IMG/VR virus record: IMGVR_UViG_3300021185_002756
Span: 1 to 64,000 of that record
From: a virus
Length of the DNA stretch: 64,000 bases
Reading direction: 5' to 3' (one strand)
The position numbers were made by a program, and so were the translations under genes. The notes below the pieces were generated by a model. The model did not search any database. It was not told the DNA's origin and worked only from the letters and a program-made list of their open reading frames with translations. Every line of letters starts with the position of its first letter. The stretch's first letter is position 1. Below are positions 2,677-10,408 of the stretch, piece after piece.

Positions 2677-2840
2677 CTGTGGCCTTTTGTTTTACGTTAA
2701 CAGTATTTAGCCCAATTTGTCTTTGTGGCCACTAATATATTTAGCGGTGCATATCAAAACTTTACACATGTTATTTCTTATTTGTTTTTGTTTTAAATAT
2801 TATTGTGGGTAGCGAACAACACTTAACCTTAGGAGATACA

Positions 2841-3563
2841 ATGTCTCGAGCGAAACGCAAAGCAAAATATCAAAGACAACTACAACAAGACAACACAATA
2901 AATTTTAACCAAGCACTAAAACGCAAACACATTGAACTTCGTCCGAAGTCAATCAATCAAGAAAACCTTATAACCAGCCTACTAGATCCACAAACCAACA
3001 TCACTGTGGCGACTGGACCTGCGGGCACGGGTAAAACTTATCTTGCAATGTTAGCGGCTATAAAAGCATTTAGAGATGGTGCATGTGAACGTATTGTATT
3101 GACTCGCCCAGCAGTGGGTGTCGATGATGAAAAGCATGGCTTTCTGCCTGGTGACTTGAATAGTAAAATGGAGCCGTGGACCAGACCTTTGTTTGATGTA
3201 CTGCGAGAATTCTACACTAAAAAAGAAATAGCACGTATGTTAGATGAACAAACTATTGAAATATCACCATTGGCTTTCATGAGAGGAAGAACATTCAAGG
3301 ATGCCTGGATTATAGCAGATGAAATGCAAAATGCAACACCTAGTCAAATGAAAATGCTAATGACACGCATAGGCGAGAACAGCAAAATAGTAATCACAGG
3401 AGATGTTGAACAAACGGATAGAACCGTACATAACAACGGACTGATAGACTTATGTAAACGATTAGAAACACGTCGTGATGGACTAAGTGTATGCTATATG
3501 AACAATAGAGATATCCAAAGACATCCTATCATTGACACAGTATTGGAGATCTACGCAACTTAA
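2841..3563 (+). CDS. phoH: PhoH family ATPase
   Basis: GPAGTGKT Walker A, LTRPAV, GFLPG, LAFMRGRTF, DEMQN, GDVEQTD, RHP; RBS AGGAG at 2831 favours the ATG at 2841. Confidence 0.95.
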   Translation: MSRAKRKAKYQRQLQQDNTINFNQALKRKHIELRPKSINQENLITSLLDPQTNITVATGPAGTGKTYLAMLAAIKAFRDGACERIVLTRPAVGVDDEKHGFLPGDLNSKMEPWTRPLFDVLREFYTKKEIARMLDEQTIEISPLAFMRGRTFKDAWIIADEMQNATPSQMKMLMTRIGENSKIVITGDVEQTDRTVHNNGLIDLCKRLETRRDGLSVCYMNNRDIQRHPIIDTVLEIYAT

Positions 3564-3567
3564 AAAT

Positions 3568-3670
3568 TGGCTCTGGGGGTAGGAGTCGAACCTACAAGGT
3601 TAAATATATTGCAGTACATTCAACCACACGGTTAACAGCCGTGCGTGTTTACCAATTTCACCACCCCAGA
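3568..3670 (-). tRNA. tRNA-Asn(GUU) with unusually long (31-nt) class-II variable arm, CCA encoded
   Basis: Acceptor TCTGGGG/CCCCAGA, G73, CCA; D-arm GTG-AAATTGGTAAA-CAC; anticodon arm CACGG-CTGTTAA-CCGTG; variable region T-GGTTGAATGTA-CTGCAA-TATATTTAACC-TT; T-arm GTAGG-TTCGACT-CCTAC. Confidence 0.9.
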
Positions 3671-3676
3671 TTATTC

Positions 3677-4507
3677 TTATACCTTGTTGATTTTTTCTAG
3701 TGCAGGGATCATACGTGTAACACCTATGCCTCCGCCTACTCTTTGAAAGAAGTCAAACTCTAAAAACTTTTCTAGTTCTGCTTCAACTCTTTCCTTACCA
3801 AACAGTTTGAATAGTAACTCTGCATACTCTCCGCCTACAATACTATGGAATGTATCTCTCATCATATCAACATCACATGAACGTTCTGCTGATCCAATAG
3901 TTTCCATACCACCTAGTATAACATCCATCTTCTTTGCAGTATTGCCATCATCATTTCTAGCCATGTTCCAAAATGGGCTTGTTAGTTCGGGGAAGTTTGT
4001 AATAAGTGTTTGACCAAACTGTTCTTCCATCTTTAGTTCGTGTTCTGCTTCCATTTCTACGTCAGTACCGAGTCCAAAGTGTTGTTGCCATTCAGCATAG
4101 GTCTTTTCTGTAATGTTGCCAAAGCCTAAGTATTCACATAGTTCATACTCCATTGCTTTTAGATCATCTACATTACCTGGCATTTCAAATTCAAACATTG
4201 GAAATATTATATCGTGTCTACCTGGAATTGCATTTGGTTCCTGTCTGTAGGAAGTTGAGACACAAAAAAAGCCCTTTGCTGAGGGCTGACTTAGTAATTC
4301 ATGTTCTAACCACATCTGGCCTGTTTGTGGTAGTGGCCAAACATTGCCTGCATAGTTGTAAGTTGCTACATTGAATGGATCTTCGCATGCGGCTAGTATT
4401 GATAATCTGTTTTGTGTGTGTACTTCAAGAAATCCTTTTTCCAAAAAAAATGACCTTAAAAGGCCAACTGTCTCTGTGAATTTACTTGGGTCTATTAGTT
4501 GCGTCAT
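3677..4507 (-). CDS. class II aaRS catalytic core (AsnRS/AspRS paralog, archaeal AsnA-like) lacking the anticodon-binding domain
   Basis: Motif 1 RSFFLEKGFLEVHT starts at residue 18; LPQTGQMWLE; motif 2 SYRQE..RH..FPMFEFE; MDVILGGMETIGSAER; motif 3 GGGIGVTRM. Only 276 aa, no room for an OB-fold. Confidence 0.85.
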   Translation of the reverse strand: MTQLIDPSKFTETVGLLRSFFLEKGFLEVHTQNRLSILAACEDPFNVATYNYAGNVWPLPQTGQMWLEHELLSQPSAKGFFCVSTSYRQEPNAIPGRHDIIFPMFEFEMPGNVDDLKAMEYELCEYLGFGNITEKTYAEWQQHFGLGTDVEMEAEHELKMEEQFGQTLITNFPELTSPFWNMARNDDGNTAKKMDVILGGMETIGSAERSCDVDMMRDTFHSIVGGEYAELLFKLFGKERVEAELEKFLEFDFFQRVGGGIGVTRMIPALEKINKV

Positions 4508-4522
4508 TGCTTTTCCTTTTTT

Positions 4523-4552
4523 TGCCTAAAAAAAATTTGCCCAAAAAAAATT
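4523..4552. repeat. 15-nt tandem repeat in the 5' leader of the aaRS-like gene
   Basis: TGCCTAAAAAAAATT followed by TGCCCAAAAAAAATT. Confidence 0.8.
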
Positions 4553-4580
4553 GGACGTTACTTGTTCATCGAGTTATTTA

Positions 4581-4664
4581 TTATAGTTTGCCTTTTCCTG
4601 ACAAATACTGTACAGTTGGCTGTGGCTTGAACCATCTTTGTAATAGTTTCTCTAACCAATTCAT
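4581..4664 (-). CDS. 27-aa small protein
   Basis: MNWLEKLLQRWFKPQPTVQYLSGKGKL, preceded by RBS AGGAGAG. Confidence 0.5.
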   Translation of the reverse strand: MNWLEKLLQRWFKPQPTVQYLSGKGKL

Positions 4665-4675
4665 ATCTTACTCTC

Positions 4676-5809: not shown

Positions 5810-6022
5810 CTATATTGTCATCGGCAACTTTGGATACGGTGTTGCTATACCGTTTTGGTTGTCTAAGTACGTGCATATAAACTCTAGCATTACTGATTCA
5901 TGCATGGTCAAATAATAATCCAATGCTTCAAAACCAATTGCATCTTCGTAAACAAAATCATGTATGTAGTTTTTGCTAACGTAATCTTCTATTGCTAATC
6001 TTTCAGTTGCTATTGTAAACAT
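5810..6022 (-). CDS. hypothetical early protein
   Basis: MFTIATE start behind RBS AGGA and an early promoter. Confidence 0.5.
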   Translation of the reverse strand: MFTIATERLAIEDYVSKNYIHDFVYEDAIGFEALDYYLTMHESVMLEFICTYLDNQNGIATPYPKLPMTI

Positions 6023-6084: not shown

Positions 6085-6120
6085 CTACGATTTGGCATAA
6101 CTATCATGCTAAATAAACAT

Positions 6121-6166
6121 ACGTTCACCCGAGAGGGCGGAAGTAGGCAATCGCTGAAGGAACGCA
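6121..6166 (+). ncRNA. glutamine riboswitch (glnA RNA motif)
   Basis: CGTTC-A-CCC GAGA GGG-CGGAAGTA-GGC AATC GCT-GAAGGAACGC: P1 CGTTC/GAACG, GNRA-capped P2, CGGAAGTA..GAA E-loop and P3, as in the glnA consensus. Confidence 0.85.
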
Positions 6167-6196
6167 CCTAACCATTTACTTAGGGAGGGTGGCAAA

Positions 6197-9264: not shown

Positions 9265-9492
9265 TTAGTCTAAAAATTCTATTATTTCTATCATTTTACT
9301 AAGTTTTTCTTGTGCTAAACGTTTGTTTGATGCTGGTACCCATGCCTGTCCTAAGCCATGTTCTTCGTCTACTTTGTTTAGTTCTAGTGTGATACGTTCC
9401 TTGCCAGTCTTACGCATCTTTAGTGGTCGTGGAGCAGTAAATTTAAGTATGAATACTTGTTCACGTGGTTTAAATTCTAATACTTCACCCAT
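9265..9492 (-). CDS. hypothetical protein
   Basis: Coupled to the clamp loader gene. Confidence 0.5.
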   Translation of the reverse strand: MGEVLEFKPREQVFILKFTAPRPLKMRKTGKERITLELNKVDEEHGLGQAWVPASNKRLAQEKLSKMIEIIEFLD

Positions 9493-10408
9493 TGATCTGC
9501 GATAGCTCTACCATAGTTGCACTTAGATTAATTTCTGGATCTGCTACGAAACTGTGATTAACAAGTCCTGTACGTATTGCCATAATAGCACTGTCTTGTC
9601 CTTCTGGAGTAGTACTGAACAGTTCTAAGTTGTCATACATCCAACGAAATACATCTTCCATCTCTTCTGGACGTACAGTTGCACACATAAGTTTACGTGC
9701 TTCAATGATCTTGCCTGCTTTGAACAAGTTTACTGCATCAACCCGCCAGTCGCTTGTGTTGCCTTCATCGCCCTTTACGTTTGTAAGTTTGCCATCTGTG
9801 CTGTTCATCTGACACAGATTCAAACACTTACGTAGATCTGGATAGGTGCTACGTACATATGTGTCCAGTGTTTCGATATCAAGTTCAACATTCTCTGCAA
9901 CCAGCACAGTGGCAATACGTGCAGTAAACTCTGTCTTGTCTACTTTCTCAATATGAAAGCCTTGACATCTACTATGCAATGCAGGGATAACTCTGTTTGG
10001 ATAGTTACAAGTTAGTATGAACCTTGCACTAGCATGATAGGTTTCCATAACACCACGCAGTGCCGCTTGTCCATTTGGCGATATATAGTCAGCCTCATCT
10101 AACAGTACAACCTTGAAGTCACCAAATGGCATTGTTTGTACAAATCCTGTGATCTTATCACGTATTGTGTCAATTGAATTTTCTCTTGATGCGTTTATTT
10201 CTAGCACATCAAAGTCATCTATTTCAAGTTGTTTGATCAGTATCTTTGCCAGTGTTGTTTTACCTACACCAGGTGCACCTGAGAATAACAAGTGCGGAAT
10301 AGCACCTTCATCTATCCAAGTTTTTACTTGTGCTTTTTGTTCTGCATCACGGAACACATATCCGTCGATGTCATCGGGCCTATACTTTTCAGTCCACAGT
10401 TGCTTCAT
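9485..10408 (-). CDS. sliding-clamp loader subunit (RFC small / T4 gp44-like AAA+)
   Basis: LWTEKYRP, GAPGVGKTT, EINAS, LLDEAD, LHSRC. Confidence 0.92.
   Translation of the reverse strand: MKQLWTEKYRPDDIDGYVFRDAEQKAQVKTWIDEGAIPHLLFSGAPGVGKTTLAKILIKQLEIDDFDVLEINASRENSIDTIRDKITGFVQTMPFGDFKVVLLDEADYISPNGQAALRGVMETYHASARFILTCNYPNRVIPALHSRCQGFHIEKVDKTEFTARIATVLVAENVELDIETLDTYVRSTYPDLRKCLNLCQMNSTDGKLTNVKGDEGNTSDWRVDAVNLFKAGKIIEARKLMCATVRPEEMEDVFRWMYDNLELFSTTPEGQDSAIMAIRTGLVNHSFVADPEINLSATMVELSQING

Follow-up and report, generated by a model that had tools for sequence, protein, structure and literature searches.

The stretch of DNA analysed here, referred to throughout as the window, covers positions 1 to 64,000 (64,000 nucleotides) of the IMG/VR virus record IMGVR_UViG_3300021185_002756. 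Its minus strand carries two adjacent genes, one for a protein derived from asparaginyl-tRNA synthetase (AsnRS) and one for an unusually built tRNA. The protein gene (3677..4507, -), defined by its open reading frame (ORF) and translation, encodes a standalone class IIb synthetase core of 276 amino acids. Between its stop codon and the first base of the tRNA lies a spacer of 6 nt without a terminator (3671..3676, -). The tRNA gene (3568..3670, -), supported by Rfam, by covariation and by our own covariance model R1, specifies a tRNA(GUU) of 100 nt (3571..3670) followed by an encoded CCA end (3568-3570). An earlier note on this DNA had described a core-only class IIb synthetase of 276 residues ending 6 nt before an odd tRNA-Asn on the same strand, and every one of these particulars was confirmed. 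Together they make up a mobile phage cassette of two genes, which is probably a new metabolic enzyme joined to a dedicated tRNA partner rather than a simple private charging pair.

The enzyme core and the long-arm tRNA

Pfam recognizes the protein as a class II Asp, Lys and Asn synthetase core (PF00152, E 9.4e-16), with residues 13-271 aligned to positions 28-293 of the 308 in the profile. The chain corresponds to the catalytic domain alone: about 12 residues precede the core, leaving no room for an N-terminal oligonucleotide-binding (OB) fold, and the alignment to AsnRS is confined to the C-terminal, catalytic part of that enzyme. The AlphaFold2 model has a mean predicted local distance difference test (pLDDT) value of 96.1, and in Foldseek it best matches the catalytic domains of AsnRS and aspartyl-tRNA synthetase (AspRS), with E values of about 1e-18 to 1e-16 and template modelling (TM) scores on the query of 0.71-0.79. 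When a profile of the family is compared with solved structures, AsnRS comes out best (8e-14) and archaeal-type AspRS next, followed at a greater distance by archaeal asparagine synthetase A (AS-AR; 3P8T, E 4e-6) and EpmA (PDB 3A5Z, E 3e-4); the AS-AR profile NF005055 reaches only E 5.5e-4.

Membership in the characterized families was considered and rejected. Against the canonical AsnRS models (TIGR00457 / PRK03932) the protein scores 38.4 bits for a cut-off of 342.6 and 37.3 for a cut-off of 414, and the OB fold is absent. Scores are similarly far below threshold for non-discriminating AspRS (ND-AspRS; 32 bits, cut-off 353), for AS-AR (PRK06462; 19.1 bits, cut-off 389, with AsnRS closer) and for EpmA/GenX, the lysyl ligase of elongation factor P (15.3 bits, cut-off 264; 14.2 bits, cut-off 286.9). 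Bacterial AsnA (PF03590) was discarded as well, PF00152 being the enzyme's only Pfam match. PHROGs places the protein in PHROG 29758 (E 1.5e-130), whose function is not annotated.

Alignment of the family with canonical AsnRS, AspRS and lysyl-tRNA synthetase from the same genomes shows that motifs 2 and 3 are intact and that the pocket signature is AsnRS-like, with LPQTGQMWLE for LTQSSQLYLE of AsnRS, SYRQE for SYRAE, and FEFE for VEAE. After the QxxQ loop the family has L-E where AspRS has K-Q, and E-x-E replaces the D-x-E of AspRS; SYRxE and the arginine of GS.ER are conserved. We take these pocket positions to be determinants of specificity in class IIb. Features peculiar to the family are AACEDP, whose cysteine is nearly invariant, the segment FPERTSPFWNM, and a helical hairpin that precedes motif 3, and the window's protein holds the full-length set of family motifs (AACEDP, WPLPQTGQMWLE, SYRxEPNPxxGRH, FPxxTxPFWNM, ETIGSAER and GGGIGxTR). 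Pfam, the predicted fold and the alignment together bear out a class IIb core that has motifs 1-3 and an AsnRS-like pocket and no anticodon-binding domain.

A HMMER search of 1.8 billion representatives returned only 689 matches, nearly all of them core-only proteins of 265-300 amino acids, which sets the family apart from the housekeeping synthetases. It is an abundant gene family, with at least 8000 proteins retrieved by a word-index search and at least 596 matches in each of two IMG/VR scans. A search of a protein atlas matched the enzyme's own viral clusters only.

The tRNA is recognized by Rfam model RF00005 at 3571..3670 (-) with 56.2 bits (E 2e-9), the anticodon GUU and a 29-nt insertion in the variable region. 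ARAGORN, run on the window, missed it, a false negative due to the long arm. The cmscan alignment places the anticodon at 3634..3636 (-), linear tRNA positions 35-37, within the anticodon loop CUGUUAA. Further features are the pair U1-A72, the discriminator G73, a D stem of 3 bp and, in the variable region, a hairpin of 28 nt. By alignment and consensus fold, this variable arm (3598..3625, -) comprises an 8-bp stem, extendable to about 11 bp, and a loop containing GCAA. Among the 23 homologous tRNAs from which R1 was built, 15 of the 28 predicted pairs show a compensatory double change, which supports both the cloverleaf and the basal part of the variable arm. The compensated variation falls on pairs of the acceptor, anticodon, T and basal variable stems, and within the variable arm on two basal pairs; the 3' strand of the arm, UAUUUA, is invariant among long-arm copies. 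No other tRNA is found in the 98-kb record of the window's phage.

Homologous tRNAs measure 82-100 nt in total, with a variable region of 10-31 nt that includes a paired stem, and thus depart from the class I shape of tRNA-Asn (variable loop of 4-5 nt, 4-bp D stem). Beyond the members of its own family, the highest R1 scores go to phage tRNA-Leu (57-61 bits), with ordinary tRNA-Asn at 43. The anticodon GUU, U1-A72 and G73 are nevertheless present in all 92 unique homologous tRNAs. GUU together with G73 is the identity set of AsnRS and ND-AspRS. U1-A72 is a determinant for GatCAB (PMC1635274). Judged from its sequence, the tRNA is a chimera in which a tRNA-Leu-like class II body bears the full bacterial Asn identity set.

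The positions that serve decoding are kept less strictly. Position 37 is U in 83 of the 92 tRNAs, A in eight (the window's copy among them) and C in one, and position 33 is C in eight; U33 and a purine at position 37 are near-universal in decoding tRNAs, and the other tRNAs of phage P-SSM7 have A37. Since the positions that are kept are those read by the Asn-charging enzymes of the host, with the ribosomal ones relaxed, charging by host AsnRS, or by ND-AspRS and GatCAB, fits better than a pair blind to the anticodon. The size of the variable arm changes within subclades of the enzyme, so its distal part is unlikely to be a specific recognition element, which speaks against the reading of a giant variable arm that the earlier note proposed.

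Linkage of the two genes in phages

Of the enzyme loci in ocean phages that could be tested, about 97% contain the tRNA. Within IMG/VR, the tRNA follows the enzyme in 74 of 80 loci of the window's clade, usually at 5-25 nt, and three of the six misses are loci truncated at a contig end; among P-SSM7-like loci it does so in 75 of 80, and contig ends cut all five misses. The reverse test, a pattern scan for the tRNA alone, yielded 80 loci, 76 of them with enough upstream DNA. In all 76 the enzyme lies upstream on the same strand, within 200 nt in 73 and at a distance of about 230 nt in three. Such a pairing greatly exceeds what chance would give, and the survey of co-occurrence and synteny that the earlier note had suggested confirms it in both directions. 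So strict a two-way linkage argues for a functional tie between enzyme and tRNA.

Megablast of the region against cultured phages gave no match, and relatives surfaced in searches at the protein level. The cultured Prochlorococcus phages P-SSM7, P-SSM2 and P-SSM5 (Kyanoviridae) carry a gene 66-68% identical to that of the window, annotated as "tRNA ligase", and within about 10 nt after it a tRNA(GUU) of 85-86 nt. Sullivan et al. (2010) list the gene as T4-GC 194 and discuss it no further (PMC3037559). In the P-SSM2 record (AY939844.2, locus L002), the tRNA-Asn feature PSSM2_199 is placed at locus positions 5825-5910, about 2 kb off the actual gene, which Rfam and ARAGORN both locate at 3813-3900, directly after the ligase gene; the coordinates of the feature seem to stem from another version of the genome. 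The window's own phage is not a kyanovirus: its clamp loader (9485-10408, -) is closest, at 56%, to those of PA5oct-like Pseudomonas jumbo phages and not to those of cyanophages. With 98 kb on record at a rated completeness of 28%, it probably belongs to the marine jumbo phages. Two or more unrelated lineages of phages thus carry the cassette, and its place in the genome differs between them.

A maximum-likelihood tree built from 101 members of the family unites all tRNA-linked enzymes in a single clade, with a support of 97 in the Shimodaira-Hasegawa-like approximate likelihood ratio test (SH-aLRT). The linkage arose once, and two loci without a tRNA, L046 and L083, are nested in this clade and represent secondary losses. 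A separate observation concerns L090 (contig NZDU01000035.1), from a sister lineage without the tRNA. Eight nucleotides after its enzyme gene, at 3866-3885, stands the sequence UCCGGGG-UC-CCCCGGA-G-CCA, which amounts to the two strands of an acceptor stem, a discriminator G and CCA, with the body of the tRNA gone. A scan of viral contigs found no second hairpin of this acceptor-stem-only kind beside the enzyme. It may be a deletion scar or a minihelix, and we treat it as a relic of a deletion.

Upstream of the enzyme gene, about 70 nt 5' of the ATG, the motif TATAATAAATA (4576..4586, -) resembles a T4 late promoter; it agrees at 7 of 8 positions with TATAAATA, which we take to be the T4 late consensus. 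A ribosome-binding site, AGGA (4514..4517, -), lies 6 nt 5' of the ATG. Scans of the region for sigma-70 promoters and terminators gave matches at chance level. Contigs from RNA libraries, obtained in three runs of one marine study, bridge the junction between ORF and tRNA, a weak indication that fits co-transcription of the two genes; the uncovered stretches and low depth upstream of 4502 in these contigs are no indicator of a transcript start. A shared late promoter and co-transcription had been proposed before. The second part holds, in that the two genes form a conserved co-oriented unit that is almost certainly co-transcribed, and the promoter itself is so far a sequence motif.

A 27-codon ORF (4582-4665, -) occupies the space between the upstream gene and the cassette, and its stop codon overlaps TATAATAAATA. 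On the other side, a convergent PhoH-like gene (2805-3563, +) stops 4 nt from the CCA end of the tRNA, such that the two transcription units meet head-on at 3561-3570, where no terminator is visible. On the opposite strand, 1.6 kb from the cassette, lies a glutamine riboswitch aptamer (RF01739, 53 bits, E 8e-9) at 6120-6168 (+), with only short ORFs downstream of it. Its presence suggests that some gene of the phage is controlled by nitrogen status.

Cellular relatives and pyrimidine genes

The genome collection contains 76 loci homologous to the enzyme gene. Those with 61-80% identity are marine contigs; six of these have the tRNA as well, and they probably represent phage DNA that was binned with the genomes. 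At 44-60% identity, the gene is found on long contigs of chromosomal origin, from Weeksellaceae, Chitinophagales, Aureispira, Alphaproteobacteria, Myxococcota, Patescibacteria, chlamydiae, Dependentiae and DPANN archaea. The long-arm tRNA is absent from all of these chromosomal loci, and also from two huge phages and their relatives, for which the whole records were searched. Of the two findings that, according to the earlier note, would together refute a dedicated pair, the first is that homologues are usually unlinked to such a tRNA; this describes the cellular and huge-phage relatives at 44-60% identity and does not apply to the ocean-phage clade, where the linkage is near-obligate. Downstream of one cellular homologue, of 44% identity, a regular tRNA-Asn(GUU) of 72 nt follows at a distance of about 250 nt in the same orientation (L159:4021-4092), a single case in some 68 cellular loci and compatible with chance.

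What some of the cellular genes do have around them are genes of pyrimidine synthesis. The core is fused to dihydroorotate dehydrogenase (DHODH) in one protein (P0124, DHODH followed by the core) and to orotidine monophosphate (OMP) decarboxylase in another (P0141, the core followed by the decarboxylase). Within 3 kb of the 76 genome loci, DHODH occurs at 12 and OMP decarboxylase at 6. In one Chitinophagales locus (L131:3952-5655) the enzyme gene sits between DHODH and a 567-residue Amidohydro_3 protein. The latter could be a further step of the same pathway; no Amidohydro_3 protein was seen beside the other homologues.

The phyletic pattern points the same way. Aspartate transcarbamoylase (ATCase) is missing in all six gene-bearing genomes examined and present in all 14 controls. 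Because the order-level sample around one carrier, a metagenome-assembled genome of Moheibacter (L117), was too sparse, with the gene in 1 of 121 genomes, sampling was moved to the level of the family: among 81 genomes sampled from the Weeksellaceae (the family of G004), 63 have ATCase, and both carriers of the gene are among the 18 that do not. Dihydroorotase exceeds its cut-off in none of five gene-bearing genomes and CarB is missing in three of five; the later steps are kept, with DHODH in five of five and OMP decarboxylase in five of six. There is no clean pattern for AsnRS, AsnB or AsnA, AsnB being present in three of the five genomes and AsnA in none.

Taken together, the fusions, the synteny and the phyletic pattern show the family behaving in cells as the missing entry into the orotate pathway would, and the fusion to DHODH suggests dihydroorotate or a direct precursor as the product. 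As these relatives work without the tRNA and are tied to pyrimidines, the family as a whole is neither primarily tRNA-charging nor an asparagine supply of the AsnA type.

Candidate roles and known systems

Several observations bear on how far this carries over to the phage enzyme. In the tree, the tRNA-linked clade adjoins, on a short branch, the clade of pyrimidine-linked and fused members. Members with and without the tRNA have about 80 conserved residues in common, all of the active-site motifs among them, and the tRNA-linked enzymes have just three clade-specific positions (M119, W140 and T219), none of them basic. Their mean net charge is about -19, compared with -11 for the cellular relatives. 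The shared residues and the short branch make the same catalysis likely in the phage enzyme.

We therefore lean, tentatively and with less than even confidence, towards a pyrimidine-supply enzyme that works with a captive tRNA charged by the host. In cells, the family would make up for the absent initial steps of the pyrimidine pathway. Motifs 2 and 3 and the AsnRS-type pocket suggest an ATP-dependent, adenylate-forming reaction on a substrate of the Asn or Asp type, and the product may be dihydroorotate or its immediate precursor. One balanced option would be Asn + CO2 + ATP -> dihydroorotate + AMP + PPi, and aspartate-based routes are also possible. In the phage, the enzyme would be a nucleotide-supply gene. 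The tRNA would be loaded by host AsnRS, or by ND-AspRS and then GatCAB, and its most likely role would be that of a carrier delivering the Asn or Asp moiety to the enzyme, and not mainly that of a decoder. A more specific version appears quite unlikely as a whole: the family would make dihydroorotate from Asn, CO2 and ATP, bypassing carbamoyl-phosphate synthetase, ATCase and dihydroorotase, and in ocean phages the Asn would be built by host ND-AspRS and GatCAB (or AsnRS) on the decoding-impaired tRNA and taken from its CCA end. If true, pyrimidine nucleotides would be reached by a route that depends on a tRNA, an advantage in hosts poor in free asparagine.

A number of points weigh against the supply of pyrimidines by way of a captive tRNA. 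The proposed reaction is drawn from context and stoichiometry alone. The enzyme is very acidic and has no clade-specific RNA-binding surface, which disfavours any direct contact with the tRNA, that of the carrier model included. The phage clade has no pyrimidine genes nearby, and the function may have shifted in phages; neither DHODH nor OMP decarboxylase is found in the window's 98-kb record, an absence of little weight at 28% completeness, and tblastn found no DHODH in P-SSM-type phages. Three loci (L046, L083 and L084) have kept the enzyme without the tRNA. The window's own tRNA, moreover, has a canonical anticodon loop with U33 and A37, so normal decoding by it is possible.

The last two points fit better with a tRNA that is uncoupled from the enzyme, an account we consider possible though somewhat unlikely. 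The enzyme would then be a metabolic one independent of any tRNA, and the tRNA would assist with AAY codons in the ordinary way, or act as a decoy for anticodon nucleases of the host, and be tied to the enzyme by promoter and transcript processing. Phage tRNAs with altered anticodon loops do evade host nucleases, the cellular and huge-phage relatives need no special tRNA, and the enzyme remained unchanged when the tRNA was acquired. It is harder to explain on these terms why the tRNA never occurs without the enzyme (76 of 76) and why the cassette is kept down to 67% protein identity, in two phage lineages and at different genome positions, since a mere helper would be expected alone or in tRNA clusters. 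U37 and C33 are moreover poor for decoding, and the class II body is left unexplained.

The pairing can also be read as the earlier note read it, as an orthogonal pair for aminoacylation: the core would recognize the acceptor stem (U1-A72, G73) and the class II shape, ignore the anticodon, and charge Asn for AAY codons. The near-obligate two-way linkage of single origin agrees with this, as do the AsnRS-like pocket, the intact motifs 2 and 3 and the encoded CCA; class II cores are able to charge acceptor minihelices, and in L090, a lone case, the gene is followed by the acceptor-stem hairpin with G73-CCA. Relatives with the same motifs, however, lack a tRNA of this kind and are associated with genes for pyrimidine synthesis, and the tRNA-linked clade, at its net charge of about -19, has gained no basic residues of its own. 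An enzyme blind to the anticodon would leave the invariance of GUU to decoding, yet the features at U33 and purine 37 are degenerate in most copies; the length of the variable arm varies within enzyme subclades, and the AsnRS score stays near 38 bits for a cut-off of 342.6. The pyrimidine wiring of the relatives and the unchanged, acidic protein disfavour a newly evolved anticodon-blind synthetase, and with GUU, G73 and U1-A72 invariant while the decoding positions are relaxed, the anticodon-blind orthogonal pair as originally stated is unlikely, though direct charging of the tRNA by the phage enzyme is possible. Less probable by far is the alternative that the same note offered, an asparagine-supply module in which an archaeal-type asparagine synthetase (Asp + NH4+ + ATP -> Asn) is accompanied by a tRNA that raises the capacity for Asn decoding. 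AS-AR shares the architecture of a core without anticodon domain, the profiles retain a weak similarity to it (3P8T and NF005055, above), and AsnB is missing in two and AsnA in all five of the gene-bearing genomes. Against this, the AS-AR score of 19 bits is far under its cut-off and the protein is closer to true AsnRS, AsnB is already present in three of the five genomes, and the DHODH and OMP decarboxylase fusions with the absence of ATCase, in relatives of 44-60% identity, indicate pyrimidines and not asparagine.

Searches of the literature found no synthetase-like route to dihydroorotate and no long-arm tRNA-Asn in phages. The gene has been annotated as "tRNA ligase" since the first cyanophage genomes, without study (PMC3037559). 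In the literature searched it is an annotation only, and the build of the tRNA, the pairing and the pyrimidine link are all undescribed. Comparative genomics points to a synthetase-derived entry into pyrimidine synthesis, hitherto undescribed, in ATCase-less bacteria, candidate-phyla organisms, chlamydiae and DPANN archaea, which, if true, would change the prediction of auxotrophy for these groups. The two-way pairing with a chimeric tRNA would mean one of two things: an orthogonal enzyme/tRNA pair that occurs in nature, or a tRNA newly employed as a metabolic cofactor.

Among known systems, canonical AsnRS (PDB 2XTI/2XGT, 1X54, 9SH8, 8TC7) shares with the phage enzyme the catalytic fold, motifs 2 and 3, and the residues Q..Q-x-x-L-E, SYRxE, ExE and GS.ER. 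The phage enzyme differs in lacking the OB domain, in its own AACEDP and FPERTSPFWNM and the extra helical hairpin before motif 3, and in having pyrimidine-wired relatives. AS-AR (PDB 3P8T/1NNH; NCBIfam PRK06462) is likewise a standalone class IIb core derived from AsnRS and offers a precedent for a cut-down AsnRS that serves as a biosynthetic, tRNA-independent enzyme. Its similarity to the present family is distant, however, and it has no dedicated tRNA, whereas the context of the family is pyrD, pyrF and the lack of ATCase.

For the pairing itself, a close parallel is PylRS with tRNA-Pyl (pylS-pylT), in which a class II enzyme and an oddly shaped tRNA are encoded side by side and co-inherited, and in which the anticodon plays no part in recognition by the enzyme. 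What sets PylRS apart is its tRNA-binding domain and a charging activity that has been demonstrated; here the anticodon is invariant, charging is putative and the relatives do without the tRNA. In shape, the phage tRNA has the 3-bp D stem, the Leu-type D arm and the long variable arm in common with bacterial tRNA-Leu, from which it differs by G73 (not A73), U1-A72 and GUU in all copies. A comparable long-arm shape is seen in the class II tRNAs of nematodes with non-Leu anticodons. The transamidation route to Asn (ND-AspRS and GatCAB) acts, in hosts, on an ordinary tRNA-Asn of 76 nt, and we know of no phage enzyme or pyrimidine link associated with it. It nonetheless provides a model of a tRNA that serves as scaffold for the synthesis of an amino acid, and its determinants, U1-A72 and GUU/G73, are the very positions that are invariant in the phage tRNAs (PMC1635274, PMC2330236).

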